Origin: an uncultured Bifidobacterium sp.
Lineage (GTDB): Bacteria > Verrucomicrobiota > Verrucomicrobiia > Limisphaerales > JADJPG01
Assembly (NCBI GenBank): GCA_964491875.1
Contig: CAZBIC010000026.1
Coordinates: 48,090 to 112,089, forward strand
Length of the DNA stretch: 64,000 bases
Direction: 5' to 3'
Positions 3,586 to 52,327 of this stretch are shown here, piece by piece. The position numbers and the translations under genes were made by a program. Under the pieces are notes generated by a model that worked only from the letters and a program-made list of their open reading frames with translations, did not search any database and was not told where the DNA came from. The stretch's first letter is position 1, and every line of letters begins with the position of its first letter.

Positions 3586-3594
3586 GATTTTCAG

Positions 3595-3843: not shown

Positions 3844-3854
3844 GGCGTTGGGTT

Positions 3855-10863: not shown

Positions 10864-10909
10864 TCTCCAGAAAGCCGACCGTTCCGCGAGTTCGTCACCT
10901 TCCGACCAT

Positions 10910-10953
10910 AAAAAAACCGGGTCGCTTGGTCAGGGGGTGACGCAGCGACCCGG
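10910..10953 (-). terminator. Intrinsic terminator (minus strand)
   Basis: 10-bp perfect stem CCGGGTCGCT (10917..10926) / AGCGACCCGG (10944..10953). A run of seven A follows on the plus strand at 10910..10916, which is U7 after the hairpin on the minus strand. Confidence 0.7.
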
Positions 10954-11083
10954 GGAATTTCGAATTTAATACAAACGTAGGATTACGTGGAAAATTCGGC
11001 GTCAGCTGTATTAGACCGATGCCGAAAACGGTTTGGGCTAGAAAGAACAATTCAAGTTGCCCGAAATTCAAGTGCCGTAATCC
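10910..11083 (-). ncRNA. Candidate small RNA of about 170 nt (unclassified)
   Basis: Bounded by a sigma70-like promoter (11090..11118, minus) and the strong terminator at 10910..10953. No ORF fits. The predicted 5' end GGAUUACG (11083..11076) can pair with CGUAAUCC (10987..10980). Confidence 0.25.
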
Positions 11084-11089
11084 GCGCCC

Positions 11090-11118
11090 AATAGACTACC
11101 CTCGGCGAGATCTGTCAA
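11090..11118 (-). promoter_or_regulatory. Sigma70-like promoter candidate
   Basis: On the minus strand: TTGACA (11118..11113), a 17-nt spacer, then TCTATT (11095..11090). Confidence 0.3.
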
Positions 11119-11881
11119 GAATCCGGGCCATGTATTAATTCTCATGCAGTTGATGATTAATTTCGCTGCACTGGACTTCACCGCCGGCAGAGCTGCTCTG
11201 TATTACTCGCCAGAGCTCCCAAGGAACCGGAATCTCCCACGTCCATGTCCGCATGATTCGTCCACGAAGGGTTGGTTCGACGGCATCTTGGGGTGATGTC
11301 GAACTTCAGGTGCAGAAATATTTTCTCCAATGGCCAGATCCGAGTTTACACGTGAATCGAACTCGATAACCTCGTGGAGCTCCGAGTGCGCCAATGACAG
11401 TGGTTTGTCGCGTTCGACGCCGATGGCCGAATACGCGACAGCGATAGATGTACGGATTGACGAAAGTTTGCTCCGTCCGCAGTGGGCGAAGAAACGTGAC
11501 CAAAGCGCCACCAAACCGTCGTTTTTCGAGGGAAAACGGGTTGTGAATAACTCGTGAACAAGAGTTAATATGTTGTCCTCGTCAGTTCCGAGCGGTTGGC
11601 CTAAATACTCGCCCCGTTAATCGAAGTGCAAAACTCTGCGGTGGATTTGTCGTCTGATTTTCTGGCGGGACCGGAAAGTGTCCTTTTGAAGGGTTTGAAT
11701 TGCAGGAAGTTGCGGTTAAGAATGAATTGCATCGAGGGCAATGTGGGTTCGATGCAGGTGCGTTTGCGAAGTAGATGCTGGCACCGGTAAGCCGGTTTTC
11801 GATTTCAAAGCTCGAATAAGAGCCAAGAATCGGGGCAGGTGAATAAATCCCCTAAAAACGGAATTTTGATTTGGGACAACA

Positions 11882-13267: not shown

Positions 13268-13293
13268 AAAGATTTGTTGGTGTGCATATGAAT

Positions 13294-13330
13294 CGGGAGC
13301 GTCGCAGTTCGGCGCTCCCGATTTGCTTTT
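13294..13330 (+). terminator. Intrinsic terminator after dnaA
   Basis: Stem CGGGAGCG / CGCTCCCG (8 bp, 13294..13320) followed by ATTTGCTTTT. Confidence 0.6.
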
Positions 13331-13388
13331 GCGAAATGCGCGCACACCCACACTTTCCAAACCTCCAACTCTCCCTACACTTCCCGCG

Positions 13389-14366
13389 ATGGCAGTGATT
13401 CAAGTTCAAGGTCTGACCAAGACCTTTCGCACCTACAAGAAGGAGCCAGGCATCGCCGGGGCACTGAAAGGATTGTTCTCGCGAAAGTACGAAACCACCT
13501 ACGCCGTCAAAGATGTCTCCTTTCAGGTCGAGGAAGGCGAACTCGTCGGCTTCCTCGGTCCCAACGGCGCTGGAAAAACCACGACGTTGAAAATGCTCTC
13601 CGGGCTGCTCTATCCGTCCGCCGGATCTGCCACCGTTCTCGGTTACACGCCGTGGAAACGCGACGATGGTTATCGCCGGCAGTTTGCCCTGCTGCTCGGT
13701 CAGAAGAACCAGCTCTGGTGGGATCTTCCCGCTCGTGAATCACTCGATCTCAACGCCAAGATCTACGGCATCGACCGCACAATCTTCGAACGCACCGTCG
13801 GCGAGCTCACCGAAATGCTTGGTGTGAAAGAAAAGCTCAACGTCATGGTCCGCGAGCTTTCCCTCGGTGAACGCATGAAGATGGAGCTCATCGCCTCCCT
13901 GCTCCACCAACCCAAAGTTCTCTTCCTCGACGAGCCCACCATCGGTCTCGACGTCATCTCGCAGAAAATCGTCCGTGAATTTCTCCGCGACTACAACGCG
14001 AAGCGCAAGACGACCATTCTCCTGACCAGCCACTACATGGCCGACATCCAGGCCCTCTGCCGCCGGGTGATCATCATAGACCACGGGAAAATTTTCTTCG
14101 ACGGGCAACTGGACGAAGTGATCGATCGTTTCGCCGACTTCAAGATTGTCACCATCCACTGCGACACCCAGAAACCCATCCCCGCTTTGGAACTCTCGAA
14201 GTTCGGTGAAGTCATCGAGAAAGATCGCGAGACTGTGAAGCTCAAAGTGAAGCGCGACCGCGTCATTCCCGTCTGCAAGGCGCTGCTCGACGAACTTCCC
14301 GTGAACGACATCGACATCCAGGAAGTCCCCATCGAGGACGTCATCCGCCAGATCTTCGCCCGCTGA
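13389..14366 (+). CDS. ABC transporter ATP-binding protein
   Basis: Walker A GPNGAGKTT, signature LSLGERMK, Walker B LFLDEPT. Start set at MAVIQVQGLTKTF (ATG 13389). No permease gene is adjacent. Confidence 0.85.
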   Translation: MAVIQVQGLTKTFRTYKKEPGIAGALKGLFSRKYETTYAVKDVSFQVEEGELVGFLGPNGAGKTTTLKMLSGLLYPSAGSATVLGYTPWKRDDGYRRQFALLLGQKNQLWWDLPARESLDLNAKIYGIDRTIFERTVGELTEMLGVKEKLNVMVRELSLGERMKMELIASLLHQPKVLFLDEPTIGLDVISQKIVREFLRDYNAKRKTTILLTSHYMADIQALCRRVIIIDHGKIFFDGQLDEVIDRFADFKIVTIHCDTQKPIPALELSKFGEVIEKDRETVKLKVKRDRVIPVCKALLDELPVNDIDIQEVPIEDVIRQIFAR

Positions 14367-16169: not shown

Positions 16170-18221
16170 TCAATCGTCGCTCGCCGGCACCGAGTCGAAA
16201 GGCTCAAACAACTTCCTCGCCTCCGTCAGCTGGCGCTCGTTTCCGATCAGCAAAACCTCATCGTTCAGCTGGAACTCAAAATCCGGCTCCGGACTGATCA
16301 CCGTCTCCGTCCCGCGCCGCACTGCGACCGCCGTTGATCCGGTGCGCGTCCGCAATTCCATCTCGCGGATCTGTTTCCCGAGCGCTGGTGATCGCGGGGT
16401 GATCTGCACGGTCACCAGCTCGGCGTTCTCGAGCAAGGACGGCATCGGCTTGGAATGTTCCAGCGCATGATGCAGCGGCTCGCGCGACAATGTTTCCCGA
16501 ATCGTCACCTGCGCCCGCGCATAGATTCGGATGAAGAACGTCCGCAGCAAGACCGCCAGCAACACGCCGATGCTGCCCAGCACCACGAATACTTCCCACG
16601 ACGGCAGCAGGACCGAACTCAGCGCGAGCACGAGCAATCCCAGTCCGACGATCCCGGCGAAGAGCGTCGTGTTCGAGATCATCGCGCGCATCGCCATCTT
16701 GTTCTTCATCGTCGAGCCGCCACGAATGGCCATCTCGGAAAGCAGCATGCTGAGCGCGTCCAGCTTGCGCAGCGTGGCGATGAAGAGCGGCAGGCTGCAC
16801 AACATCGCCGCCAGCCAGAGCACCGTGTTGCGACCGCCAGTCCACCGCGGCAGATCCGTTAACCAATCGACCTTCCAGCGATCGAGGAGGGTCGCGGCGA
16901 GAAACAATCCCGCGATAAGCGCGACATTGATCGACAGCTGAAAGACCATCAGGCGCACCATCTTTCTCGGCGCGCTCACCGAATGATTCTCCCGCACACG
17001 GCGAATCCACGCCGTGTAATCCTGCTGGTAATGGAGCAGCGAGCGCGGGGCGAACCGGTCATGCAGCTTCACCAACCAGTCCGCGTGCTGGATGAGAAAC
17101 GGCGTCAACGCGGAGGTGACCGTGGAGACGCATACCGCGATGGGATAAAGGAAATGACTCGTCACGCCAAGGTCCTTGCCCAACGCGGCGATGATGAACG
17201 AGAACTCGCCAATCTGCGCGAGGCCGAGCCCCACGCGCATGGACGTGCCGCGATCGTAGCCCGCCACAAAACTTCCGAACGAGCAGGCCGCAATCTTCCC
17301 GACCACCAGCATCACGCTGATTACCGCGATCGGGAGGGCGTATTGCACCAGCAGCTTCGGCTCAATGAGCAGACCGATCGCCACGAAGAATACCGCGCTG
17401 AACATGTTCCGCAGCGGGGCCGTCAGCCGCTCGATGCGCCGGATGTCGTGAGATTCCGCAATCAACGCGCCCATGATGAACGACCCCAGCGCGACGCTGT
17501 ACTTCAGCTTCAGCGCGAGTAGCGCAAGGCCGAAGCATAAACCCAGCACGGTAATCAGCATGGTTTCCTCGTTGTGAAACCGCGCCACCAACGCGAGGAG
17601 TTTGGGCACGATCAGCAACCCAAGCACGATGGACATCACGGTGAACACGCCAAGCCGCCCCATGGTTTCCAACACCGCACCGACTTCAAACGTGCCGGTC
17701 ATCGCCACGCCCGACAGCGACGCGATCAGCAAAATGGCGATGATGTCCTCCGCGATCAGAATGCCGTAGATCACTTCGGCGAACTTCTCCTTGCCCTTCC
17801 CGAGATCGGCGAGCGTCTTGGTGATGATCGTCGTGGAGGAGATCATCATGATGCCGCCGAGGTAGACACTGTCCGTCCCGCTCCAGCCGAAGTAGCGCCC
17901 GATCTGGAATCCGATGAAGAACATCAGCGCCGTTTCGAGCGGAGCAACGATGAACGCCGTGAAGCCAATCTGCCGGATCTTCCGAAAGTTGAACTCCAGC
18001 CCGAGCGCGAAGAGGAGAAAGACGATGCCCAGTTCAGAAAGCGTCTGGATGCTTTGCTCATCCGACACCAGTGGAGACGGTAGAACGTGCGGGCCGATGA
18101 TCACGCCGGCCAGGATGTAACCCAGCACCACCGGAAGTTTCAGCGCACGGAAGCTGACCGTGACCAGTCCGGCCACCATCATGACCACGGCAAGATCCTG
18201 GAGGAATGCGGCGTTGTGCAT
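16170..18221 (-). CDS. CPA2-family cation:proton antiporter with C-terminal TrkA-C (RCK_C) domain
   Basis: N-terminal LPVVLGYILAGVIIGPHVL and multiple TM segments. The C-terminal part reads VTVQITPRSPALGKQIREMELRTRTGSTAVAVRRG...LLIGNERQL. Confidence 0.85.
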   Translation of the reverse strand: MHNAAFLQDLAVVMMVAGLVTVSFRALKLPVVLGYILAGVIIGPHVLPSPLVSDEQSIQTLSELGIVFLLFALGLEFNFRKIRQIGFTAFIVAPLETALMFFIGFQIGRYFGWSGTDSVYLGGIMMISSTTIITKTLADLGKGKEKFAEVIYGILIAEDIIAILLIASLSGVAMTGTFEVGAVLETMGRLGVFTVMSIVLGLLIVPKLLALVARFHNEETMLITVLGLCFGLALLALKLKYSVALGSFIMGALIAESHDIRRIERLTAPLRNMFSAVFFVAIGLLIEPKLLVQYALPIAVISVMLVVGKIAACSFGSFVAGYDRGTSMRVGLGLAQIGEFSFIIAALGKDLGVTSHFLYPIAVCVSTVTSALTPFLIQHADWLVKLHDRFAPRSLLHYQQDYTAWIRRVRENHSVSAPRKMVRLMVFQLSINVALIAGLFLAATLLDRWKVDWLTDLPRWTGGRNTVLWLAAMLCSLPLFIATLRKLDALSMLLSEMAIRGGSTMKNKMAMRAMISNTTLFAGIVGLGLLVLALSSVLLPSWEVFVVLGSIGVLLAVLLRTFFIRIYARAQVTIRETLSREPLHHALEHSKPMPSLLENAELVTVQITPRSPALGKQIREMELRTRTGSTAVAVRRGTETVISPEPDFEFQLNDEVLLIGNERQLTEARKLFEPFDSVPASDD

Positions 18222-18502
18222 TACGCGGGCGTTGCTGCTGCGGACGCTACAAACTCCGTTGCGTCACGGCGAGCGGCAAAAGTTCACCCGCCTAGTCCCG
18301 CACCGAATTTTGCGCCAGTCCGAGCAATCCGCTGCGTTCGTCTTGCGTCGACGTCATTGCCACTTTCGGCCCATCAGTGCCCCAGCCTGTTGACAGCCCA
18401 CTCGCCGTCGTTAGTCTCGTTTCAGCTGCATCGGCGCCTCCGGCCGGCAGCAACTGCCGTAATGCGTTTGGACAAATCAACAAAGCACTCATCAACGTGG
18501 TT

Positions 18503-19069
18503 ATGAAAACGACCTTCTCACTCAAAACGACTTTTGCACTGCTGTTCGCACTGGCGACCTTCGTGTTCCAGGCCCCGGCTGCCGAGAAATCCGAAGCCGC
18601 CGCCATTGCCGCGCTGTCGGACAAAATGGAAAGCAGGGTGACCGCCGCGATGCAGGAGATTGAAAAGAAGTATCCCAACAGCGTCGAAGGCGTCGCCAAG
18701 ATCAAATCCATGCTCGGTGACGAACGTGTGAAGGTCCGTCGCAAAGCTGCTCGCGTCGTGGGCACGCTGCACGCGGACGTCACCGAGGCTGAGCTCAAGC
18801 AAATCGCCGCGCTGCTCAAGGGCAAGACGCCAGAGGAAATCATCGACGGTTTGAAGGCGCTCCGCGGACTGAAGTCCCAGCCGGTCATCCCTGAGATCAA
18901 GGCGCTGCTCGATCATCCCACGCCGAACGTCATCCGCGACGCGTGCCGCACGCTGTCTGAAATCGGCGGCAAGGATCTGATTCCTGCCATCGAACCGCTC
19001 CTCAATCACGCCAACGCGGCTGTGAAAAAGGACGCCCAGGACGCCATCTTCAAGCTGAAGAACAAGTAA
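18503..19069 (+). CDS. Secreted HEAT-like repeat protein
   Basis: Signal peptide MKTTFSLKTTFALLFALATFVFQAPAA, followed by HEAT-like units (VRRKAARVVGTL, VIRDACRTLSEIG, AAVKKDAQDAI). Confidence 0.6.
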   Translation: MKTTFSLKTTFALLFALATFVFQAPAAEKSEAAAIAALSDKMESRVTAAMQEIEKKYPNSVEGVAKIKSMLGDERVKVRRKAARVVGTLHADVTEAELKQIAALLKGKTPEEIIDGLKALRGLKSQPVIPEIKALLDHPTPNVIRDACRTLSEIGGKDLIPAIEPLLNHANAAVKKDAQDAIFKLKNK

Positions 19070-19097
19070 GCTTCCGCCCGAGCCGACACATTCATTC

Positions 19098-19130
19098 CTC
19101 CCGCAGCGCTCGCGTTGCGGGAGTCTTTTT
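19098..19130 (+). terminator. Intrinsic terminator / attenuator-like hairpin
   Basis: Stem CTCCCGCA (19098..19105) / TGCGGGAG (19116..19123), 10-nt loop, then TCTTTTT. It overlaps the TTG start proposed by the ORF track for the lyase gene. Confidence 0.6.
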
Positions 19131-19159
19131 CCCTCTTGTCCTCCGAATTACTCCGCGAC

Positions 19160-20734
19160 GTGATACCTCTGGACGGCCACCATCTGTCACTCCAGGACGT
19201 CTGGCGTGTCTCCTGTCTCCAAGCCCCGTGCCAGCTCGCGGACAGTTCGCGCCCGCTCGTGCGCCGCAGTCGTGAGCTCGTGGACAAGCTCGCCGCCGAA
19301 CCTCGCGCCATCTACGGCATCAATACCGGATTCGGCCCGCTCAGCGGCTTCCGCGTCAGCAACGAGGATCAAGCCCAGCATCAGATCAACCTACTGCATC
19401 ATCTCTTCTGCGGTCAGGGCGTGCTCTACTCCGAAGTCGAAACGCGGGCCATCATGCTCGCCCGCGCGAACGCGCTCGCGCGCGGTTACTCCGGCATTCG
19501 CGAGGAACTGATCGAGCTGCTCATCGCCGCGTTGAACAAGGGCATCCTCCCGGAGATTCCCAGCGAAGGCTCCGTTGGCGCCAGTGGCGACCTCGTTCCG
19601 CTTGCGCATATGGGCGGATTGCTCGTCGGCCTCGGCCACGCTCGCGTCGGCGGCAAGCGTCTCTCAAGCGCGGACGCACTCCGCCAAGCCGGACTTACTC
19701 CCGCCGTTCTCCGCGCGAAGGAAGGTCTCGCGCTCGTGAACGGCACGTCCGTGATGACCGCCCTTGCCGCGCTAGCCACGCACGAAGCCGATCGCATCCT
19801 CCGCTGGATGGAACTGCTCGCGTCGTGCCTGTTTCAAGTTCTCGGTGGCGAACCGGAAGTGCTCTGTGGTCAGGCGCACATGGCTCGCGGATTTCGCGGA
19901 CAGTCGCTCGTCGCGCGACGCATCAGTGATTCGCTGCGCACGCATCCCGATTACGCCCGTCGCATCGATGACCATCAGTGGGGCTCGATGCCCAAGCTGG
20001 TCGATGCCGGCGCGGAGATTCAAGATCCGTATTCGCTCCGCTGCGTCCCGCAGGTGCTCGGCGCATTCCAAGAAGCACTCTGGCACGTCGAGGAAGTCGT
20101 CACGCGTGAGCTGAACGCCAGCACCGACAACCCGCTCATCTTCCCGGACACGGGCATGGTGATTCACTGCGGCAATTTCTACGGGCAACAGGTCGCCATG
20201 GTGAGCGATTACCTGCGCATGGGCCTCATCAAGACAGCCCTCCTCGCCGAGCGCCAGATCGAGCGTCTCGTGAACTGGCGTTACAGCCGTGGCTTGCCGC
20301 CGATGCTCACGGGCGGCGCCGCGGGTTTAAACACCGGCTTCTCCGGCGCGCAACTTCTCGCCACATCACTCGCTGCGGAAGCGCGTTTGCTCGGCACACC
20401 CGCTTCCATCCAGACGATCCCGACGAACGCCAACAACCAGGACGTGGTCAGCATGGGCAGCATCGCCGCGAAGATGACGCGCACCGCGTTGCCGCTCGTC
20501 TGGAAGATTCTCGCCATCGAAACGCTCGCGCTGGTGCAGGCGGCTGACTTGCGCGGGAAGGACTTCGTGCTCGGCAGCGACTTCCGCAAGCTTCACGACA
20601 TTGTGCGCGGCGTCTCCGCGCAGCTCGGCAGTGATCGCCCGCTCGTGACGGACATTGAAGAAGTCACGCGACTGCTTCAGTCTGAGGAAGTGCAGCAGCA
20701 ATGTCTCGCGCCTCAAATCGAAAATGAACACTGA
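19160..20734 (+). CDS. Aromatic amino acid ammonia-lyase (HAL/PAL/TAL family, TAL-like selectivity residues)
   Basis: MIO triad in GSVGASGDLVPLAHM, plus NTGFGPLS. The selectivity-switch position reads NLLHHLFCGQG (His-Leu). Start uncertain: the track gives TTG 19115, which lies inside the terminator hairpin. I prefer GTG 19160 (IPLDGHHLSLQDV). Confidence 0.85.
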   Translation: MIPLDGHHLSLQDVWRVSCLQAPCQLADSSRPLVRRSRELVDKLAAEPRAIYGINTGFGPLSGFRVSNEDQAQHQINLLHHLFCGQGVLYSEVETRAIMLARANALARGYSGIREELIELLIAALNKGILPEIPSEGSVGASGDLVPLAHMGGLLVGLGHARVGGKRLSSADALRQAGLTPAVLRAKEGLALVNGTSVMTALAALATHEADRILRWMELLASCLFQVLGGEPEVLCGQAHMARGFRGQSLVARRISDSLRTHPDYARRIDDHQWGSMPKLVDAGAEIQDPYSLRCVPQVLGAFQEALWHVEEVVTRELNASTDNPLIFPDTGMVIHCGNFYGQQVAMVSDYLRMGLIKTALLAERQIERLVNWRYSRGLPPMLTGGAAGLNTGFSGAQLLATSLAAEARLLGTPASIQTIPTNANNQDVVSMGSIAAKMTRTALPLVWKILAIETLALVQAADLRGKDFVLGSDFRKLHDIVRGVSAQLGSDRPLVTDIEEVTRLLQSEEVQQQCLAPQIENEH

Positions 20735-21980
20735 CGTCGATGTGCTGATTATTGGTGCCGGCCCGGCGGGTTGCGTCGCCGCGTCGCTCCTGCACCGCGA
20801 GGGCTTCAAGGTGCGTGTCATCGAGAAGCAACGCTTCCCGCGCTTTGTCATCGGCGAGAGCCTGTTGCCGCACTGCATGGATTACCTTCAGGAAGCCGGC
20901 CTGTTGGAAGCGGTCGCGAAGGAGAATTTCATCCAGAAAAACGGCGCGGTGTTTCATCGCGATGGCGGCACGTGCAATTTCGATTTCTCCGCGCAGTTCA
21001 CCGAAGGCTGGAAATACACCTGGCAGGTCACGCGCGCCGAGTTCGATCTCGCGCTGGCCAACGCGGTGAAGGACATGGGCGGGGAGGTGTTGTTCGAGCG
21101 CAGCGTTACTTCCGTCGAGTTTCTCGACACGCACGCGACCGCGACCGTCTCGCATCCGGACGGCTCGTCGCAGAATGTCACCGCGAAGTTCATCCTCGAT
21201 TGCAGCGGCTACGGACGCGTCTTGCCGCGCCTGCTCGATCTGGAACGTCCATCGAACTTCCCGGTGCGCGAGGCATTGTTCGCGCACGTCACGGGCGATC
21301 ACCGACCCGAAGGTCGCGAGGAAGGAAAAATTTGGGCGTGCCTGCATCCGAGCGGCGCATGGCTGTGGATCATTCCGTTCTCCAACGGCCGCACAAGCGT
21401 CGGCGTCGTCGCCACGCCGGAGATTTTCGCGCAGTTCCCCGGCACGCCGGAGGAACAGCTGCGCGCGATCGTTTCGACCGACCCCAGTGCCGGGCCGCGT
21501 TTGCGCGACATGGAACTGGCCTTCGTGCCGCAACGCATTGTCGGATTCTCCTGCGGCGTGAAACAAATTCACGGCCCCCGCTACGCGCTGGTGGGCAACG
21601 CGACGGAGTTTCTCGATCCGATCTTCAGCTCCGGTGTCACGCTCGCGCTCGCCTCTGCCAGTCGCGCCGCGAAGACGCTGACGCGCGAACTGCGCGGTGA
21701 GACGGTGAACTGGCAGGCGGATTACGCGGACTGGGTAATGGGCGGCATCAACGCCTTCCGCGCCTATGTGACCGCTTGGTATGACGGCACGTTGCCCGAC
21801 ATCTTTTTCAACGCCGGCCGAAATCGCGACATCATGCGCCAGGTCTGCTCCGTACTCGCAGGTTACGTGTGGGACAAGAGTAATCCCTACGTGACTCAAC
21901 CCGAGCGCGCGCTGCCGCTGCTCTCGCGCATCATTAAGAGCCAGGCTGCAGCCGTCGAGACGGCGACGGCCGTGAAGTAA
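20724..21980 (+). CDS. Flavin-dependent halogenase (phenol/pyrrole type)
   Basis: VLIIGAGPAGC FAD fold, KQRFPRFVIGESLLP, WLWIIP (WxWxIP) and FLDPIFSSG (FxxPxxSxG). The ATG at 20724 overlaps the lyase gene by 11 nt. Confidence 0.8.
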   Translation: MNTDVDVLIIGAGPAGCVAASLLHREGFKVRVIEKQRFPRFVIGESLLPHCMDYLQEAGLLEAVAKENFIQKNGAVFHRDGGTCNFDFSAQFTEGWKYTWQVTRAEFDLALANAVKDMGGEVLFERSVTSVEFLDTHATATVSHPDGSSQNVTAKFILDCSGYGRVLPRLLDLERPSNFPVREALFAHVTGDHRPEGREEGKIWACLHPSGAWLWIIPFSNGRTSVGVVATPEIFAQFPGTPEEQLRAIVSTDPSAGPRLRDMELAFVPQRIVGFSCGVKQIHGPRYALVGNATEFLDPIFSSGVTLALASASRAAKTLTRELRGETVNWQADYADWVMGGINAFRAYVTAWYDGTLPDIFFNAGRNRDIMRQVCSVLAGYVWDKSNPYVTQPERALPLLSRIIKSQAAAVETATAVK

Positions 21981-21995
21981 TCCGTCGTTCGCTCC

Positions 21996-23072
21996 ATGGA
22001 TTCCAAGCCCCTCTTCTCCCAGGACAACAAGAGCGCGTTCGACGCAAAGGCCGAGGCGCAACGCATCGCCTATGCCCCTGTGGCGTTCCAAGCGTGCCGC
22101 GTGCTGCGCACCGAGGGAATTCTCGAGGCGGTGCAGAAGAGTGGTTCCACCGGCATCACGCTCGCGGACGTCGTGGCGAAGGTCAGCCTGCCGCGTTACG
22201 GCGTGAAGGTGTTGATGGAAGCTGGGCTCGGCGTCGGGCTCTTCTGCCTGAACGATGGCCGCTACACGATCACCAAGCTCGGCTACTTCATGCTTCGCGA
22301 CCCGATGACGCGCATCAACATGGACGTGGTGCATGATGTCTTCTATCGCGGCTTCTTCGATCTCGATAAGGCGGTGCGCGAAGGAAAACCCGCCGGTCTG
22401 AAATCGCTCGGCGACTGGCCAACGATCTACGAGGGACTCTCCTCGCTCGAGCCACAAGCCCGCGAAAGCTGGCTGGCGTGGGACCATTACTATTCCGATC
22501 AGGCGTTCCCCGCCGCGCTGCCGATCGTCTTCGCTCATCAGCCGAAGCGATTGCTCGATGTCGGCGGGAACACCGGCAAGTTCGCCATCCAATGCGCGAA
22601 GCACAACGCCGACGTGCGCATCACCATTGCGGACCTCGACAAGCAACTCGCGCTGGCGAAGTCGAATCTCCAGCAGCACGGCGTCGCGGATCGTGTGGAC
22701 CTGCAAGCAGTGAATCTGCTCGATGAATCGGCCACGCTGCCGGGAGGTCACGACGCGATTTGGATGAGCCAGTTCCTCGACTGTTTCTCCGAGCAGCAAA
22801 TCGTTTCGATCCTGCGCCGCGCCGCCGCCGCGATGACGCCGGACACGCGGCTCTACATTCTCGAACTGCTCTGGGACCGGCAGCCGAACGAAACGGCGGC
22901 GTTTTGTCTCCAACAGATTTCGCTCTACTTCACCTGCCTCGCGAACGGCAACAGCCAGATGTATCACTCCTCGGACCTGCTCGGCTGCATCCAGCAAGCG
23001 GGCCTTGTCGTCGAGGAGCAGCGCGACCAAGTGGGCCTCTACCACACGCTCATCACCTGCCGGAAGGCGTGA
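21996..23072 (+). CDS. SAM-dependent O-methyltransferase (family 2 type)
   Basis: SAM motif LLDVGGNTGKFA, an N-terminal dimerisation-like region, and 358 aa length typical for small-molecule OMTs. Confidence 0.85.
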   Translation: MDSKPLFSQDNKSAFDAKAEAQRIAYAPVAFQACRVLRTEGILEAVQKSGSTGITLADVVAKVSLPRYGVKVLMEAGLGVGLFCLNDGRYTITKLGYFMLRDPMTRINMDVVHDVFYRGFFDLDKAVREGKPAGLKSLGDWPTIYEGLSSLEPQARESWLAWDHYYSDQAFPAALPIVFAHQPKRLLDVGGNTGKFAIQCAKHNADVRITIADLDKQLALAKSNLQQHGVADRVDLQAVNLLDESATLPGGHDAIWMSQFLDCFSEQQIVSILRRAAAAMTPDTRLYILELLWDRQPNETAAFCLQQISLYFTCLANGNSQMYHSSDLLGCIQQAGLVVEEQRDQVGLYHTLITCRKA

Positions 23073-23085
23073 GGCAATATTGGAC

Positions 23086-23184
23086 CGCGGCTCTGTGAGC
23101 CGCAGCAACGTGGAACTTCGATCCGCTCCCGATTCTTGAGGGCGTGGTGTGAGGAGTAAGATTGCTGCGGGTCACAGACCCGCG
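23086..23184. repeat. REP-like pair of inverted hairpin elements
   Basis: CGCGGCTCTGTGAGCCGCAGCAA (23086..23108) and TTGCTGCGGGTCACAGACCCGCG (23162..23184) are reverse complements with 2 mismatches. Each mismatch is compensated within its own 7-bp hairpin. Confidence 0.5.
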
Positions 23185-23498
23185 CTCCGGAGTGCGGCGC
23201 TTACACCTCTTTAGCGCCCAACACCTCCACTTCCTTCTAGATGCTCCGGACGCCCGAATCGAGAATGACCCTAAAGCTGTTCCACTCATTGGTAGGTTGA
23301 CTTCGCGACTAGCTGTAGAAGCCTCGGCTTCGACGCGGCGCGCGGCCAAGGTTTGGCCAACGATGCGCCTGCTCGTCGTTGTGGCTTCAAACGAACTATG
23401 AAGCCAAATCGCCGAAAGCATAATCCGTATCGAGATCCGCAAAGCTGCCAGCCTCCACACCCAAAAGCCTTCTCCCCTTTGTCAGACAAGAAGGAGTG

Positions 23499-25079
23499 TC
23501 ACAGTGCGAAGCCGATTCCTGCCACCGCGGCATCGCCGCGCGCGAGCCAGCTTTCGAGGCCGTAACGTTCGTAGCGGAAGAATAGTTTTCCACGCGGGCG
23601 ACGCACGCCAGCTTCCGCCTGCCAGTCCGGCGTTTCGTTACCGATGGAGCCAAGCCCGCGCGCATAGAGCACGCAGCCACGAATCGCCGCCGCGTCCCAG
23701 TTCAAGCCGACCTGCCCGGACGGATTCGCGCGCTCGCGCGAATGATGAAAGTCGTGGCCGATGGTCAGCCGCCAGTCGAAGCGATTCAGCCAGCGCGTTT
23801 CGGCGGCGTAGATGCCCGGGTCGCGATACGGTAGATCCCAACCGAGCGTCTGCACGCGCAGGCGGGGACCGAGATTGATGCTGTTATGCGGCAGCGTTTC
23901 GCCGGCGGGAACACGGTCCGCATCCGGCGCGAGCACGTGCGCGCTGCGATGCAGATACTCCAGGCCCACCACGAGCGGCTGTCCTTGCGAGAAGACTGAC
24001 GCCAGACCAACCCGCGCCTGCGCGCCGATGCTGACGGTGTAGGAGATGTTGTCGTAATCGCCCGGCCGATACTCCTGACGTGATTCGTAGGTGAGGATGC
24101 CGGTCAGCATCTGATCGAACAGCTCCGAGTCATGGAACTCCGCGGTGAGCTCCGTGCGTTGAATGGAACGTTCGCCGCCGTAGCCGAGATCATACTGGCC
24201 CCAGACCAGCGGCAGCCAGCCGGTTGGACGGTTTTCACGCGCGTCGTAGAGCTTTTCCGTGTCGAGCGACGCGCTGACCTCCACGCCGAGCAGGAGCGAC
24301 GAGGAACGATCTTCGTAAAACGGATTACCATCATTCGCCCACCATTGGGCGCGGAATCGGGCGCGATTGCCGTTCGACGAAGGCAGTTCCAGAACCGGGC
24401 CGATGCGATAGTGACCGTGGAACTTCTCCTCGTCGTTCGCGGATTCCACATCCGCTTCGAGACTGAGCCACGGCTGAATTTTCGTCTCGCCCATCTCCCG
24501 ATCGGCGAATCCATACACGCGCCACGCCAGGTGAATGTCGCTCCACCAATCCGCATCCAGCCGGCGACGATGCGCGAATCCGCCCACAGCCACGCGCCAT
24601 TCGAATCGTGAAATCTCCGTGCGCACCGGTGAGCCGAGGCCAAGACCAACCTCGCAGGCATCGAGCAAGCCGGGCCGATCCTGAAACGCTGTGCGATGAT
24701 AACCGGCGACGCCGAGCAGCCGGAAATTCTCGGCGAACTGGAAGTCGGCTTCGAATTGATTGCGGAGATTGAGCAGTTGGGTCTGCGAACCTTCTCGCAG
24801 CACCGGCGTGGTTTCCTTCTGCTGATAGCGCAACGACCAACTGTCCTCGTGGACGAGCGGAATGAGGACGCGCGTCTCGGCCATGTAGCTGTGGTGATCG
24901 CCGAAGAGCGGACCGATGAGGCCATCGATCGTGGGTTGCGTGCGGTCTTCGGCGACGGCTGATGAAGCGATTAGGAAAGTAGCCACCGACGTGAGGAGGT
25001 GGATTCCCCAGAACATCGAACGCACCGCCTCCTCACGTCGACGGCTACAGCCGAGCTTCGTGCGGTCGTCGGCTCTCAT
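23499..25079 (-). CDS. Hypothetical secreted protein, putative outer-membrane beta-barrel
   Basis: Internal signal-like segment MFWGIHLLTSVATFLIASSAVA. Many short alternating hydrophobic/polar stretches ending in aromatic residues (RVAVGGFAHRR, HLAWRVYGF, RFRAQWWAND). The start at 25079 overlaps the halogenase stop (ATGA). An alternative start is M22 at 25016. Confidence 0.5.
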   Translation of the reverse strand: MRADDRTKLGCSRRREEAVRSMFWGIHLLTSVATFLIASSAVAEDRTQPTIDGLIGPLFGDHHSYMAETRVLIPLVHEDSWSLRYQQKETTPVLREGSQTQLLNLRNQFEADFQFAENFRLLGVAGYHRTAFQDRPGLLDACEVGLGLGSPVRTEISRFEWRVAVGGFAHRRRLDADWWSDIHLAWRVYGFADREMGETKIQPWLSLEADVESANDEEKFHGHYRIGPVLELPSSNGNRARFRAQWWANDGNPFYEDRSSSLLLGVEVSASLDTEKLYDARENRPTGWLPLVWGQYDLGYGGERSIQRTELTAEFHDSELFDQMLTGILTYESRQEYRPGDYDNISYTVSIGAQARVGLASVFSQGQPLVVGLEYLHRSAHVLAPDADRVPAGETLPHNSINLGPRLRVQTLGWDLPYRDPGIYAAETRWLNRFDWRLTIGHDFHHSRERANPSGQVGLNWDAAAIRGCVLYARGLGSIGNETPDWQAEAGVRRPRGKLFFRYERYGLESWLARGDAAVAGIGFAL

Positions 25080-26335
25080 CGAATCGCCAGCTGCGCGGGG
25101 TTCTCATCCTTGAGCCCATACTTCATCGCGAAACGCAGCAGGCCCACGCTGTAGGGCGAAGTCGACGCCGCGCCGCTGAAGATGCGGCCGAGATGCTTGT
25201 TCATGTGCGGGAAAGTCAGCTTCACAAGCAGTGTATCGCGCAACATCTGGCCGACTTTGAAGCAGGTGAACAGGCGGCCATTGTAAAAGTAATCCACGAT
25301 CTCATGCCACGTCGCGAGGTGATGAATCACCTCGCGCTCGTAATGCTTCATCGCGTCGGGCGTGCCCTTGAGCATCGCGTCCGCGAGCATAAACGCGCCG
25401 TTCATACCGAGGAACAATCCGCTCGAAAAGACCGGGTCGATGAACCCCGCGGTGTCGCCGACCAGCGCCCAGTTCTCGCCCACGCTGCGCGAAGAAACGA
25501 GCTGGTAGTTGGTGTACTCCATCACAGGTGTGATGCGTTTCGCGCCACCGGCGACGGTTCGCAGCACGGAATCCTGCTGGAGCAAATTGTCGTAACGCTC
25601 CTCCTTCGTCGCGCCAAAGCGTTGCGCGTGATCGCGTCCGAGCACCATGCCGAGCAACACGCGGCCGCGCAGCGGAATGCGCCAGCTCCAGCCGTGATCC
25701 AACCTCGTGGTGTGAACGTGGCCTTCGTGCTCGATGACGGTTTGGTCCACATGAGCGAAGAGCGCAACGTCCTTGCGCCGCCCTTCCGAGCTCGAGATGC
25801 CGAGCAGGTTCGGCAGGAGACGCACGCGCCCGGTGGCGTCGATGATCCAGTCCGGCTGCCCGCGGAAGAAATCGCCCGTGGCCGCCAGCGTTTCCCCGCT
25901 GAGCTGAACGCGGTCAGTAGTTCCTACGCGCTCAACACCAGCCATGATTTCAAACACCGACGCTCCGGCGCGTTTCGCGGCGTTCAGCAACGTGTCATCG
26001 AACCGCTCGCGGGGAACGTTGTAGGCGTAGCGCGCCGTGCGACCGGTGAGCGTTTTGAAGAAGAAGGTGAAATTGACCTCGTCGTTCAGGTTAAACGTCG
26101 CACCCGGCTTGAGCATGCTGTAGGCGCGAACTTCATCCTCCACCCCGAGCTGTTGCAGCATCGGGATGATGGCGGGCACGAGCGATTCGCCGACGATGAG
26201 CGGCGCAGCCTTGGGTTTGTGGAACAGCGCGACGCGTTTGCCGGCGCGGGCGAGCAGGATGGCCAGCGTGCTGGCGGCGGGACCGGCTCCGAGAATGGCT
26301 ATGGTGTGGGCGTTGACCACGGTTTCGCCGGTCAC
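25076..26335 (-). CDS. Flavin-dependent halogenase (second copy)
   Basis: IAILGAGPAAS FAD fold, LIVGESLVP, WSWRIP (WxWxIP), FIDPVFSSG (FxxPxxSxG). GTG start. Confidence 0.8.
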   Translation of the reverse strand: MTGETVVNAHTIAILGAGPAASTLAILLARAGKRVALFHKPKAAPLIVGESLVPAIIPMLQQLGVEDEVRAYSMLKPGATFNLNDEVNFTFFFKTLTGRTARYAYNVPRERFDDTLLNAAKRAGASVFEIMAGVERVGTTDRVQLSGETLAATGDFFRGQPDWIIDATGRVRLLPNLLGISSSEGRRKDVALFAHVDQTVIEHEGHVHTTRLDHGWSWRIPLRGRVLLGMVLGRDHAQRFGATKEERYDNLLQQDSVLRTVAGGAKRITPVMEYTNYQLVSSRSVGENWALVGDTAGFIDPVFSSGLFLGMNGAFMLADAMLKGTPDAMKHYEREVIHHLATWHEIVDYFYNGRLFTCFKVGQMLRDTLLVKLTFPHMNKHLGRIFSGAASTSPYSVGLLRFAMKYGLKDENPAQLAIR

Positions 26336-26394: not shown

Positions 26395-27840
26395 CTACTG
26401 CTCCGACTCGTCGTTGGATTCCTTCAGCCCGAAGTGTTGCAGCTTCTCGCGCACGGTCTGGCGCGACATTTTCAACCACCGTGCCGCCCGCGCTTGATTC
26501 CCTTGCGCCAGCTTGATCGCGCGGGTGAAGAGCTCGCGCTCCATCGCTTCGAACACGCGTGCGTGAACATCAATTTCGGCGCCGCTCTTGGCCTCAGCCA
26601 GCAGCTCATCCATCAGGGCTTCGATCGAACCCGATCCCGCGGGCTTGTTGTGAAAAGCCGTGTCGCCGCCCTTGGCCAGCATCATTTCCAAGACCTCCCG
26701 GCTGATGGGAAAACCACGGGACGAGAGCAATCCCTGGCGCATCACGTTCTCAAATTGTCGAACGTTTCCCGGCCAGCGCTGGTCCTTGAGCCAGGCGAGT
26801 CCGGCGGGCTGGATGGACGCATCGGCCAGCTTCAGTTCCTCGCGAAAACGGCGGAGAAAATAGTCGGCGAGTGCCGGAATATCCTCCGCGCGCTCCCGCA
26901 GCGGCGGCAGCTTGATCACCACCGAACCGAGCCGGTAGTAGAGATCTTCGCGGAAATGCTTCTCCGTGATCGCCTGTTCCAAATCGCGGTGAGTGGCGGC
27001 GATGATGCGGACGTCCACCGGAATGCTTTCCTTGCCGCCGACGCGCTGGATGATCTTTTCCTGGAGCACGCGCAGCAGCTTCGCCTGCGTGAAGGCGGTC
27101 ATGTCGCCGATCTCATCAAGAAACAGCGTGCCGCCTTGCGCCTGCTCGAACCGGCCAATGCGACGCTGGTCCGCGCCGGTGAAAGCGCCGCGTTCGTGAC
27201 CGAACAGTTCGCTTTCGAGGAGCGTTTCCGGGATCGCCGCACAGTTCACGGCGATAAAGGGTTTCCCGGCGCGATCGCTGTGCTGGTAGATGGCGCGCGC
27301 CACCAGTTCCTTGCCGGTGCCTGTCTCGCCACGGATGAGAACGGTGGCGGACGTTCCGGCGACGCGACCGATCTCCTTGTAGACGGATTGCATCGCGCGA
27401 CTATTGCCGATGATGGCCTGGGCCGTTGGCTTGTCGGACGCCGCGCCGAGCTCCACGCGTTCGCTCATCAACCGGGAGCTCGCGACGGCGCGCTTCACCA
27501 CTTCGAGCATCTCCGCGACATCGAAGGGTTTGAGGATGTATTCGAAGGCGCCGAACTTCGTGGCTTCAATGGCCGTTTCCGTCGTGCCAAAGGCGGTCAT
27601 GAGCACCATCGGCAAGCGCGGCTTCTCGACGTGAATCTGCCGAATCAGCTCCAGCCCATCGAGACCGGGCAGGCGCAGATCGGTGATGACGAGATTAAAC
27701 TCCCCGCTCTTGGCGCGCTCCAGTCCTTCATCCCCGCGATGGCAGAGCGTGACAACAAATCCCTGGGACCGCAGCAGCTTCTCCAGCGACTGCGCGGACC
27801 GCGTGTCGTCTTCAATGACCAGAATGTGTGGCGAGTTCAT
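26395..27840 (-). CDS. Sigma54-dependent response regulator (NtrC family)
   Basis: REC (ILVIEDD...DLRLPGLDG), AAA+ domain with GETGTGKE and ESELFGHERGAFTGA, and C-terminal Fis-type HTH ARAARWLKMSRQTVREKL. Confidence 0.9.
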   Translation of the reverse strand: MNSPHILVIEDDTRSAQSLEKLLRSQGFVVTLCHRGDEGLERAKSGEFNLVITDLRLPGLDGLELIRQIHVEKPRLPMVLMTAFGTTETAIEATKFGAFEYILKPFDVAEMLEVVKRAVASSRLMSERVELGAASDKPTAQAIIGNSRAMQSVYKEIGRVAGTSATVLIRGETGTGKELVARAIYQHSDRAGKPFIAVNCAAIPETLLESELFGHERGAFTGADQRRIGRFEQAQGGTLFLDEIGDMTAFTQAKLLRVLQEKIIQRVGGKESIPVDVRIIAATHRDLEQAITEKHFREDLYYRLGSVVIKLPPLRERAEDIPALADYFLRRFREELKLADASIQPAGLAWLKDQRWPGNVRQFENVMRQGLLSSRGFPISREVLEMMLAKGGDTAFHNKPAGSGSIEALMDELLAEAKSGAEIDVHARVFEAMERELFTRAIKLAQGNQARAARWLKMSRQTVREKLQHFGLKESNDESEQ

Positions 27841-28807
27841 GCGTGTGTTCGATGGGCAGGACCATGCGGAAGATGGTGCCGTGATTCATCTGGGTGGAGT
27901 ATTCAAGAGTGCCGCCGTGCTTTTCAAGAATGCGCGCGGCGATGCTCAATCCGAGACCGGTGCCGCTGGCCTTGGTGGTGTAGAACGGATCGAAGAGCCG
28001 CTTCTGCACTTCCGCCGGAATGCCAGGGCCGGTGTCCGCGACCTCAAGGATGACATTGGTGAGCGTTCGAGGACCACGACGGCGCGTCTCGGTCCGCGTC
28101 CGCAAAGTCACAGTTCCATCGCGACCAATCGCCTCGGCGGCGTTCTTCACCAGGTTGATCAACACCTGCTTCAACTGGGCGGCGTCCGCTCGAATATGCG
28201 GATCGGCGAGGTAATCCTCTTTCAGGGCGATGCTCGACTTCTTCAACTCCGGCGAGAGCAGCGGCACCAGTTCGCGCAAGGGCTGGGTGGCCTTCACGAC
28301 CACGAACTGCGGCTCCGCCGGGCGCGCGAAGTCGAGCACGTCCTTCACAATTTGTTCGAGCCGCGCAATCTCGCCCGTGAGAAAGACGTTGTCCTCGAAC
28401 TCCTCGGAGCCCTTCTTCAACAACGCTTGTTGCGTAAAGAGGCGAACGCGGATCGAAGTAAGCGGATTGCGAATCTCGTGGGCGATGCCCGCCGCCAGCA
28501 CGCCGAGCGAAGACAACTTTTCCTGACGTTCGATGATCAGCTGGCTGCGCCGGAGATTCTCCTGAAGCGGCGCAATCACACCGCGATAGGTGAAGACGGT
28601 CAGCGCGCCGCCCATGACCAGCAACACGACCGATGACCAGGTCAACATGCGGTGGAGCTCGGCGATGTCGTCCTGCGTGGGCACATACTCCGGACTGCGC
28701 CGGAGATTGTTCACCTGCTGCCACGTGTACATTTCCGTCCAGACGATGACCATGAGCGCCACCGCGATGGCCAGCAGATGAACAGTGGTGCGCATTTTCG
28801 GCGTCAT
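27812..28807 (-). CDS. Sensor histidine kinase (two TM segments, very short external loop)
   Basis: H-box AAGIAHEIRNPLTSI, DTGPGIP and GTGLGLSIA ATPase boxes. It overlaps the regulator gene by 29 nt. Confidence 0.85.
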   Translation of the reverse strand: MTPKMRTTVHLLAIAVALMVIVWTEMYTWQQVNNLRRSPEYVPTQDDIAELHRMLTWSSVVLLVMGGALTVFTYRGVIAPLQENLRRSQLIIERQEKLSSLGVLAAGIAHEIRNPLTSIRVRLFTQQALLKKGSEEFEDNVFLTGEIARLEQIVKDVLDFARPAEPQFVVVKATQPLRELVPLLSPELKKSSIALKEDYLADPHIRADAAQLKQVLINLVKNAAEAIGRDGTVTLRTRTETRRRGPRTLTNVILEVADTGPGIPAEVQKRLFDPFYTTKASGTGLGLSIAARILEKHGGTLEYSTQMNHGTIFRMVLPIEHTHELATHSGH

Positions 28808-28823
28808 AACGTGAATGCGGAGA

Positions 28824-29339
28824 TCAACGATTCATCTGCCAGAGCGTCCAGTTGAGCACCGCCGCGAAACTGACCCATGCCAGGTACGGCGCGAGCAACA
28901 GGGCGGCGGTCCGGTGAACGTTCCAGAACGAAAGGAGCGTCATCAGAATGCCAAGCCACAAACACACGATATCCACGAAGGCGAGAGCCGGGTTCTTCAG
29001 CCCAAAGAACAGCAAGGACCAGAGGGCGTTGAAGACCAGCTGGGCGAGAAACAGCGAGAGCGGCCGGAGGTTCGCCGCGAATCCACCGCGCCGCCAGACC
29101 AGCCATGCCGCGGATGCCATCATGAAGTAGAGCGCCGTCCAGACCGGACCAAACAGCCACGACGGAGGAGTCCACGAAGGCTTGCTCAATTGCGCATACC
29201 ATTCCCCCGGCATGAAGAGCGCGCCGAAGGTGGCCGCGCCGAAACAGAGCGCCAGCCAACCGGCCAGGGCCAGCACCGAGCGGATGCGGTCCGGCATGGC
29301 GGCGGGAGAGAGAGGGGCCGTTGGCAAGATGGATGACAA
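28824..29339 (-). CDS. tspO: TspO/MBR tryptophan-rich sensory protein
   Basis: WYAQLSKPSWTPPSWLFGPVWTALYFMMASAAWLVW plus a five-TM layout. Confidence 0.85.
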   Translation of the reverse strand: MSSILPTAPLSPAAMPDRIRSVLALAGWLALCFGAATFGALFMPGEWYAQLSKPSWTPPSWLFGPVWTALYFMMASAAWLVWRRGGFAANLRPLSLFLAQLVFNALWSLLFFGLKNPALAFVDIVCLWLGILMTLLSFWNVHRTAALLLAPYLAWVSFAAVLNWTLWQMNR

Positions 29340-29356
29340 GAAGGTTCCGGAGAACG

Positions 29357-29809
29357 TCAGTCTTTCTCGTATTCCTTGAGGAAGCCGATGAACTCGCGGC
29401 GATGATCTTCTTCGCCCCCGAGAATTCCAATGACCATGTCCTGCGTGACGTAATCAACGCCGTCGCAGAGTTTGATGATCTTGTTGTACTGGGCGATGGC
29501 TCCTTCTTCCGCCTTGATGACGCCCTTGATCACCGCCACGACGTCCGTGGTGTCCTTCTTGGGCTGGAGGAATTTCTGGCTGCGCGACAAATCGAGCGAG
29601 CCGGGCACCTGCCCGCCGATCGTCTTGATGCGAGTGGCGAGTTGCTGGGCGTGCTGCACCTCCGTCAGGACATCCGCCGCAAGGGCCTTCTTGATGACAT
29701 CCGAGCGGACGCCGTCGAGGTTCACGGAGGCAGCGATGTAGTTCTGAACTGTCTCCAGCTCCATGGCGTAGGAGAGGCAGAGCTCCTTGATGATGTGCTT
29801 GTTCTTCAT
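29357..29809 (-). CDS. Ferritin-like four-helix-bundle protein
   Basis: Ferritin-like helices with Glu/His ligand candidates (AMELETVQNYI, EVQHAQQL, EEGAIAQY, GGEEDHRREF). Start set at MKNKHIIKE (29809). Confidence 0.7.
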   Translation of the reverse strand: MKNKHIIKELCLSYAMELETVQNYIAASVNLDGVRSDVIKKALAADVLTEVQHAQQLATRIKTIGGQVPGSLDLSRSQKFLQPKKDTTDVVAVIKGVIKAEEGAIAQYNKIIKLCDGVDYVTQDMVIGILGGEEDHRREFIGFLKEYEKD

Positions 29810-52279: not shown

Positions 52280-52327
52280 ACGAGCAACGAATGTCGGTTT
52301 ACTTCTGACACTTGCGGATACATCGAT

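Follow-up and report, generated by a model that had tools for sequence, protein, structure and literature searches.

The flx cluster of Chitinophaga pinensis and Flavobacterium johnsoniae (Schoner et al., 2014; PMC3992019) directs the synthesis of flexirubins, pigments with a tyrosine-derived ring that vary in ring methylation and chlorination. The supplementary gene table for C. pinensis lists an ammonia-lyase (flxA), a short-chain dehydrogenase/reductase (flxB), ketosynthases (KS), acyl carrier proteins (ACPs), a lipid-A acyltransferase (flxE), dehydratase-like proteins, a methyltransferase (flxJ) directly before flxK, annotated as a 'tryptophan halogenase', a deacetylase (flxP), a LolA protein (flxQ), a family 2 glycosyltransferase (GT2; flxT), an exporter-acyltransferase-methyltransferase fusion (flxU), a retinol-reductase-like protein (flxV), a C45 acyltransferase (flxW) and a ligase (flxY), and the conversion of tyrosine to 4-coumarate by FlxA and the 4-coumarate-CoA ligase activity of FlxY have been shown in Chitinophaga (PMC3992019). 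Here we analyse a 64,000-nucleotide stretch of contig CAZBIC010000026.1 (hereafter the window), from a member of the Limisphaerales/Pedosphaera group of the Verrucomicrobiota, in which a block of genes for a secreted HEAT-repeat protein, an aromatic ammonia-lyase, two flavin-dependent halogenases (Hal1 and Hal2), a methyltransferase and a large β-barrel protein (18503..26335) lies some 14 kb from one end of what is most likely a cluster of this kind: nearly every flx gene has a counterpart here.

Two further pathways resemble the locus in part. The xanthomonadin and arcuflavin systems of Xanthomonas and Azoarcus sp. BH72 (PMC3949708) likewise yield halogenated and methylated aryl-polyene (APE) pigments, and the Azoarcus genes reside in two unlinked clusters that include a halogenase, a methyltransferase, an outer-membrane protein and a Na+/H+ antiporter, a layout paralleled by the split found here, with a barrel and a Na+/H+ exchanger beside the block. 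They differ from it in their starter, 3-hydroxybenzoate supplied by the chorismatase XanB2, in the type of ligase and in their proteobacterial hosts. The ape cluster of Escherichia coli and Vibrio (PMC8253772) shares with the present locus a ketosynthase and chain-length-factor (CLF) pair, dehydratases (those encoded here match the ApeI-like and ApeP-like Pfam families), a LolA-like protein, export of the resistance-nodulation-division/MMPL kind, a lysophospholipid acyltransferase and a glycosyltransferase, but its starter is 4-hydroxybenzoate, loaded directly onto an ACP by ApeH, and it has neither an ammonia-lyase nor a halogenase. Genome mining has previously turned up aryl-polyene clusters in Verrucomicrobiota (PMC9865893), and our literature search found no paper linking flexirubin-type clusters or their halogenases to this phylum.

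Compared with flx, the locus resides in Verrucomicrobiota rather than Bacteroidota; its lyase has His-Leu at the selectivity switch, where FlxA is like a histidine ammonia-lyase (HAL); its genes are split by 14 kb; and its family scores all fall below the equivalog cut-offs. It also has two divergent halogenases and, beyond the flx set, a trio made up of an AMP-dependent ligase, an ACP and an HxxxD-motif protein, a secreted HEAT-repeat protein and, in some lineages, the large barrel. An earlier, sequence-only reading of the window had not recognised the gene combination as a described pathway; flxA, flxK, flxJ and flxY nevertheless stand together in the published flexirubin cluster (PMC3992019), and we regard the locus as one of the flexirubin/aryl-polyene kind in an unusual phylum and with a split layout, that is, as an annotation result and not as a new type of pathway.

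The proposed head-group block and its polyene cluster

We surveyed the window with a map of open reading frames (ORFs) and with Pfam and NCBIfam profile searches of the encoded proteins, and took the evidence for linkage from gene neighbourhoods on metagenome and metagenome-assembled genome (MAG) contigs, with flanks of about 10 kb; with Hal1 as the anchor, a scan of metagenomes yielded 80 contigs (loci in relatives are given by L numbers). On the plus strand the block comprises a MIO-dependent aromatic ammonia-lyase of the tyrosine ammonia-lyase (TAL) type (19115..20734; Pfam Lyase_aromatic, 519 bits), Hal1, a halogenase of the FlxK/3NIX type (20724..21980; Trp_halogenase and FAD_binding_3), and an FlxJ-family methyltransferase dependent on S-adenosylmethionine (SAM), a predicted ring methylase with Methyltransf_2 and Dimerisation2-like domains (21996..23072). 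The lyase and Hal1 genes overlap by 11 nt and 15 nt separate Hal1 from the methyltransferase gene. Converging on them from the minus strand are the second, divergent halogenase Hal2 (25076..26335; Trp_halogenase, 93.5 bits) and a 526-residue ORF for a large outer-membrane β-barrel, assigned from an AlphaFold2 model (23499..25079), whose ATG at 25079 is overlapped by the Hal2 stop codon (ATGA). The ORF map and the profile searches thus bear out the five genes of the sequence-only reading together with their coordinates, overlaps and motifs. A sixth conserved gene, absent from that reading, lies directly 5' of the lyase and encodes a small secreted HEAT-repeat protein (18503..19069, plus strand); it is present in 14 Hal1-anchored contigs, and its product is 56% identical to the HEAT_2 protein encoded 5' of the lyase in L120. 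A 202-residue ORF antisense to it (18292..18900, minus strand) was rejected as spurious, as it scores far below the HEAT-repeat gene across relatives.

The claim that the five genes come with no CoA ligase and no polyketide synthase holds within their own 7-kb interval but fails beyond it, and the fallback offered with it, that the product is handed on to unlinked enzymes and that ligase and ACP genes reside at 18..5258, is essentially correct. At its left edge the window takes in the last part of a flexirubin/aryl-polyene cluster, in the form of an operon on the minus strand. Its first gene encodes an AMP-dependent acyl-CoA/ACP ligase (3855..5258; Pfam AMP-binding and AMP-binding_C; syntenic in relatives), followed by an 82-residue ACP with a GFDSMSL motif (3595..3843; NCBIfam PRK07081, E 8e-8, below cut-off), a 420-residue protein with an HxxxD motif (HALMD; 2323..3585; syntenic in relatives), an FAD-dependent oxidoreductase (PF12831; 1232..2326; Pfam FAD_oxidored, 209 bits; syntenic in L015-L036) and an FlxY-like acyl-CoA ligase of the F390-synthetase/PaaK type, the predicted 4-coumarate-CoA ligase (18..1235). 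This last protein, called as 405 residues in identical Logan contigs, has NF053551 FlxY_rubin as its top NCBIfam match (419 bits, cut-off 520), with the runner-up family at 179 bits. The HxxxD protein had no Pfam, NCBIfam or PDB sequence match; judged by its motif it is a putative acyltransferase resembling condensation enzymes and wax-ester synthases. As a side observation, it could form the ester or amide link of the pigment, and the trio of AMP-dependent ligase, ACP and HxxxD protein (2323..5258) might supply a different partner for it.

In a scan of one genome per species, the FlxY-like ligase is conserved at 58-96% identity in 22 verrucomicrobial MAG loci that carry the same operon and are titled Limisphaerales, Pedosphaera or Verrucomicrobiia. 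Several MAG records with this clearly verrucomicrobial locus (L018, L020, L024, L025, L030, L035) bear the titles 'uncultured Bifidobacterium sp.', 'Proteobacteria bacterium' or 'Akkermansia muciniphila', which are probably taxonomic mislabels. Beyond the operon the MAG loci continue into genes for a 1285-residue MMPL-acyltransferase-methyltransferase fusion, a lysophospholipid-type acyltransferase, a C45 acyltransferase, a FabZ-like dehydratase, a lipoprotein, a LolA-like protein (top match LolA2_flexi, 80.8 bits, cut-off 125) and a polysaccharide deacetylase. For the population sampled here, exact-match Logan contigs run into a gene for a GT2-DUF2062 protein and all break about 75 nt past its end; in the near (96%) relative L016, to which the window is 92% identical, a DDE transposase gene (12610..13536) sits at that spot, between the GT2-DUF2062 and MMPL fusion genes, and probably explains the breaks. 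Bridging the break by a search with a relative's LolA-like protein led to two contigs of the window's own sample series (L118 and L119; about 91% identical to L016), and these encode an FlxB-like ketoreductase (top match FlxB, 311.5 bits, cut-off 340), a lipid-A-type acyltransferase, an ApeP-like dehydratase, a ketosynthase, an ACP, a KS-CLF fusion, a deacetylase, a LolA protein and an ApeI-like dehydratase. The LolA protein and the window's methyltransferase, both of which report 116,924 bp as their longest contig, would lie on the same NCBI contig. A polyene-forming set resembling fatty acid synthases of type II lies immediately beyond the window on contigs from the same population, and the set for attachment and export at the envelope (deacetylase, LolA-like protein, GT2, exporter-acyltransferase-methyltransferase fusion and C45 acyltransferase) was found as well.

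The sequence-only reading had called the five genes an orphan cluster, a description that does not survive comparison with relatives, in many of which the block is contiguous with the ketosynthase/ACP core. On the contig YQ_forest_Scaff2352434, whose methyltransferase is 73% identical to that of the window, the system stands in one piece, in the order FlxY operon, export genes, ketosynthase core, ketoreductase, HEAT-repeat protein, lyase, Hal1, methyltransferase and, on the opposite strand, Hal2. In L120/L121 one contiguous cluster runs from the ketoreductase through the HEAT-repeat protein, lyase, Hal1 and methyltransferase to Hal2 on the opposite strand, and the same junction between core and lyase block recurs in L057, L059, L066, L069, L070, L071, L079, L093 and L094; the block abuts the core in at least 10 contigs from relatives. 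Among Hal1-anchored contigs with enough flank, the lyase lies 5' of Hal1 in 33 of 45, the methyltransferase 3' of it in 30 of 55 and Hal2 downstream in 13 of 28; core genes are found upstream in 8 of the 15 contigs that have the lyase and at least 6 kb 5' of Hal1. Of the five genes whose co-occurrence the sequence-only reading had offered as a check, those for the lyase, Hal1, the methyltransferase and Hal2 recur together on such contigs, with the barrel a facultative fifth member (8 contigs). In 15 contigs, L047, L054, L058, L059, L063, L070, L071, L077 and L079 among them, a divergently placed gene for a phytoene-desaturase/amine-oxidase-like protein of about 500 residues precedes the lyase; it is probably the counterpart of flxV, and the window holds no such gene. 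In the genome studied here the block has relocated to the opposite side of the cluster, and the roughly 14 kb between them carry unrelated genes, namely those for a HEAT-repeat protein, two response regulators, an amidohydrolase, DnaA, an ABC ATPase, PolX and the Na+/H+ exchanger (16170..18221), the last of these beside the block.

Taken together, these results lead us to read the block as the head-group sub-cluster of a flexirubin-type aryl-polyene pigment pathway, with a probability of roughly 0.85. In the pathway that we propose, the lyase would deaminate L-tyrosine to 4-coumarate, as its MIO triad and His-Leu switch suggest, and the FlxY-like ligase would make 4-coumaroyl-CoA. The ketosynthase, KS-CLF fusion, ACP, FlxB-like ketoreductase and ApeP/ApeI-like dehydratases would build the polyene as a type II set; Hal1 (FlxK-like) and Hal2 would halogenate the phenol ring ortho to the phenol, and the FlxJ-like methyltransferase would methylate it, probably on carbon ortho to the hydroxyl. 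Finally, the acyltransferases, the GT2-DUF2062 protein and the C45 acyltransferase would attach the polyene acid to a lipid anchor, and the MMPL fusion and LolA-like proteins would move the product to the outer membrane, steps modelled on the scheme proposed for the aryl polyenes of E. coli (PMC8253772).

Several points weigh against this reading. The C. pinensis pigment is described as methylated, with no mention of chlorine, despite the presence of flxK in the cluster (PMC3992019). Searches of the accessible literature for 3NIX and for a characterised flexirubin halogenase came back empty, and they gave no demonstrated activity for halogenases of the FlxK/3NIX clade. All flexirubin NCBIfam matches fall under their curated equivalog cut-offs, and for the lyase hutH (473.8 bits) outscores FlxA (388.5 bits). 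In this genome 14 kb separate the block from the closest gene of the cluster, and in some 40% of long contigs no core is present within 10 kb. Nothing resembling DarA or DarB was noticed in the flanks of about 10 kb, in which no search aimed at these proteins was made. Dialkylresorcinol (DarA/DarB) genes define true flexirubins, and the trait that marks flexirubin-type pigments is a yellow-orange colour with a reversible shift in potassium hydroxide.

Halogenases and methyltransferase

The assignment of two flavin-dependent halogenases by the sequence-only reading is upheld by Trp_halogenase matches, by motifs and by a conserved, aligned lysine. GxGxxG, WxWxIP, FxxPxxSxG and the active-site lysine occur in both proteins (GAGPAG, WLWIIP and FLDPIFSSG in Hal1; WSWRIP and FIDPVFSSG in Hal2); the two are 29% identical. 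The lysine of Hal1 aligns with that of Hal2 and with the second lysine of the 'pkkfga' stretch in PltA, which we take to be the catalytic Lys73, assuming an offset due to a tag. In Hal1 the lysine, WxWxIP and FxDPxFSSG are each kept in 82 of 82 orthologues, and at least 27 of 28 Hal2 orthologues retain the lysine; the sequence-only reading had proposed the catalytic lysine as a check on both flavoproteins, and both carry the aligned residue. These motifs, like those of the lyase (below), are under selection and not a product of chance, and Hal1 and Hal2 appear to be genuine proteins of the flavin-dependent halogenase type, with halogenation as their predicted activity.

The best PDB match of Hal1 is 3NIX (443.7 bits), presumably a structural-genomics protein of Cytophaga hutchinsonii, followed by PltA, Bmp2-type, CmlS and CndH-type enzymes (about 143 to 100 bits), and Hal2 matches 8ZOP, ChlB4, PltA, CmlS and CndH-type enzymes, with characterised halogenases at about 77-112 bits. 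Although close to Hal1, 3NIX has no assigned function; apart from it, the nearest solved relatives of both proteins are all demonstrated halogenases. With PltA, Bmp2, CndH, ChlB4 and 3NIX they have in common the motifs of the fold family, the active-site lysine and a short length of about 420 residues, with no large C-terminal substrate domain. Since they are short and closest to carrier-protein-dependent enzymes, a thioester-bound substrate is likelier than free coumarate. The probable substrate of Hal1 and Hal2 is an intermediate bound to a carrier, which would be a thioester of the 4-hydroxyphenyl kind (coumaroyl or polyenoyl) in place of a pyrrole or a tyrosine.

The alternative that survives best keeps the pathway and denies the halogens: the two proteins would be hydroxylases or other flavin monooxygenases, and the pigment methylated, hydroxylated and halogen-free. 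To the absence of an assayed FlxK/3NIX-clade enzyme and of any mention of chlorine in the C. pinensis pigment, both counted above, this explanation can add NCBIfam matches of the halogenases to the monooxygenases QhpG and LodB (78 to 121 bits). It has to contend with WxWxIP, FxxPxxSxG and the active-site lysine in both proteins, conserved across 28 to 82 orthologues, and with solved relatives that, after 3NIX, are all demonstrated halogenases. In halogenases WxWxIP blocks access of the substrate to the flavin. Chlorinated flexirubins (PMC3992019) and brominated xanthomonadins (PMC3949708) are, moreover, existing products of such pathways, and we consider a halogen-free pigment unlikely.

The third plus-strand gene had been read as an O-methyltransferase, of which the SAM methyltransferase family stands and the O-methylation is the less likely part. 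Its top NCBIfam family is NF053543 FlxJ (523.7 bits, just under the cut-off of 560), and the best 120 of its more than 8000 homologues are all at least 68% identical, the named ones being nearly all from Verrucomicrobiota. Adjacency of Hal1 and the methyltransferase in dozens of contigs, matched by that of flxJ and flxK in C. pinensis, supports membership of the FlxJ/FlxK pair, and in a Verrucomicrobiae MAG (L001, 14224..16530) the two are fused in a single protein of 768 residues, strong evidence for a common substrate. The ring methyl of flexirubin derives from methionine with loss of one ring hydrogen, indicating C-methylation (PMC3992019), and by analogy ring C-methylation is more likely here than O-methylation.

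Linkage to the core and the ammonia-lyase

The product envisaged by the sequence-only reading was a free acid, and in its fullest form this alternative posits a self-contained pathway without polyene machinery, in which a (di)halogenated, methylated 4-coumaric acid, serving as an antimicrobial or a diffusible signal, is exported via the barrel. The distance of 14 kb between the block and the nearest cluster gene speaks for it, as do the contigs in which the block has no core within 10 kb (L001, L046, L048, L051 and others) and a terminator-like hairpin upstream of the lyase that suggests separate transcription units. This hairpin, found by a consensus scan at 19098..19123 on the plus strand, between the HEAT-repeat gene and the lyase, has an 11-bp stem with 8 G-C pairs followed by TCTTTTT and is the strongest terminator-like one of the region. 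A dual role also has a precedent, in that the Xanthomonas pigment precursor 3-hydroxybenzoate is a diffusible factor as well.

Against a free acid stand the FlxY-like ligase and the linked polyene core, which contradict a halogenated, O-methylated coumarate as the end product; the junctions of the block with the ketosynthase/ACP core in at least 10 independent contigs; the best family matches, to FlxJ and FlxY, together with the same gene set in the published flx cluster; and the inconsistent linkage of the barrel to the block. In two genomes (L018 and L021), moreover, Hal2 homologues (61-64% identical) are embedded, with a second HxxxD paralogue, inside the flx-type core operon that carries FlxY, and in L057 a PaaK-type ligase gene lies between those for the lyase and Hal1. 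The fusion in L001, the embedded Hal2, the ligase of L057 and the core junctions make a stand-alone pathway very unlikely.

Returning to the flexirubin-type pathway, its predicted entry enzyme had been called a TAL-type lyase with a His-Leu switch, and this is sustained by the Lyase_aromatic match and by alignment with the HAL of Pseudomonas putida. The protein carries a GASGDL MIO triad and the stretch NLLHHLFCGQG, whose second His and Leu fall, in a gapless alignment, on Ser82-His83 of the P. putida enzyme; with Leu at the position of His83, the histidine-binding residue of HAL is gone. We take the pair to correspond to the His89-Leu90 selectivity switch of RsTAL (Watts 2006, Louie 2006), and His-Leu at this position is typical of tyrosine enzymes. 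Orthologues from other contigs retain the pair in 39 of 39 cases and the ASG triad in 42 of 42. Among solved structures, tyrosine aminomutase and RsTAL-type chains come closest, and the lyase, at 388.5 bits against an FlxA cut-off of 700, appears from its sequence to be a functional analogue of FlxA. That it is instead a tyrosine 2,3-aminomutase or a HAL, as its best solved match (the aminomutase SgTAM, 317.8 bits) and its top NCBIfam match (hutH) might suggest, is highly improbable, given scores under both cut-offs (hutH 539, Tyr_2_3_mutase 501), the replacement of the substrate-binding His83 by Leu, the flx-type context in relatives and the absence of hut genes near the lyase in the Pfam profile search of window proteins.

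The position 19098, given by the sequence-only reading as the left end of its cluster, is the foot of the hairpin and not a start codon. As the TTG at 19115 is overlapped by the hairpin, TTG 19136 or GTG 19160 is the likelier start of the lyase; the latter, which would give about 524 residues as in relatives, is probably the true one.

The β-barrel, neighbouring genes and implications

The outer-membrane component that had been proposed as a dedicated part of the cluster is confirmed as a β-barrel by its AlphaFold2 model (mean pLDDT 91.1, pTM 0.85, about 25 strands), and the protein would thus be probably a 24- or 26-stranded barrel; what did not hold up is the word dedicated, as it is not consistently linked to the cluster. 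It had no Pfam or NCBIfam match, and those of its 111 homologues that have a source name are all from Verrucomicrobiota. Membership of the TonB-dependent, usher, LptD or Occ porin families was rejected, Foldseek returning generic barrels only (best TM-score 0.34, root-mean-square deviation >14 Å). Judging from the lengths of homologues, the protein may start at Met22, in which case the ATGA overlap with Hal2 would be no coupling signal.

A barrel gene lies between the methyltransferase and Hal2 in 8 contigs, with products 51-95% identical to that of the window, and in L002 and L004-L006 (one 84%-identical copy and three others) it is found by itself in unrelated surroundings. From these last, barrel-anchored contigs one would conclude that there is no linkage at all between barrel and cluster, a conclusion overturned by the Hal1-anchored contigs, in which the position is recurrent but facultative. 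The association of the barrel with the cluster is facultative. L038, with a Hal1 96% identical, is nevertheless without the barrel. A comparison of L038 with L044 shows Hal1 genes 96% identical to each other and a barrel between methyltransferase and Hal2 in one and missing from the other, which is a recent presence/absence polymorphism. A dedicated role for the barrel in localising the pigment is tentative, with the odds against it; the Azoarcus arcuflavin genes, with their outer-membrane protein (PMC3949708), offer a precedent. A bolder proposal, that the barrel is a dedicated device for inserting or translocating the aryl-polyene lipid at the outer membrane, recruited to its place between the methyltransferase and Hal2, and that the block in addition releases a free halogenated coumarate signal under the adjacent sigma-54 two-component system, is improbable; if true, it would add a new outer-membrane component for lipid export and a pathway with a dual role in pigment and signal.

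The genes of this two-component system, for a sigma-54 response regulator and a histidine kinase, lie with one for a 217-residue protein directly upstream of Hal2 and on the same strand (26395..29457). The pair (26395..28807) was rejected as a member of the system, as it is not conserved beside the cluster in relatives. Elsewhere in the window, some 1 kb with no long ORF lies ahead of dnaA (11882..13267), and G+C dips to 0.53 there, suggesting a replication origin (10863..13267); near 12 kb, however, the cumulative GC skew has a peak and not a minimum, the reverse of the usual origin signature. Further to the right, the interval 44501..55159 contains the gene for a giant protein of 2592 residues with six Lamin-tail domains, a CotH kinase domain, Laminin_G_3 and Big_5, adjoined by that for a 911-residue protein with three Laminin_G_3 domains.

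For enzymology, the clade offers two uncharacterised types of halogenase, one of them with a solved homologue (3NIX). For genome mining, the locus carries a warning, as cluster finders would miss halogenation and methylation where the head-group genes lie at least 14 kb from the core. In chemotaxonomy, flexirubin-type pigments serve as markers of Bacteroidota. That a cluster matching flx almost gene for gene is widespread and strongly conserved among the Verrucomicrobiota of soil, freshwater and wastewater suggests the presence of halogenated aryl-polyene lipids in the outer membrane of these poorly cultured bacteria, where they may help to protect against oxidative damage or damage by light.

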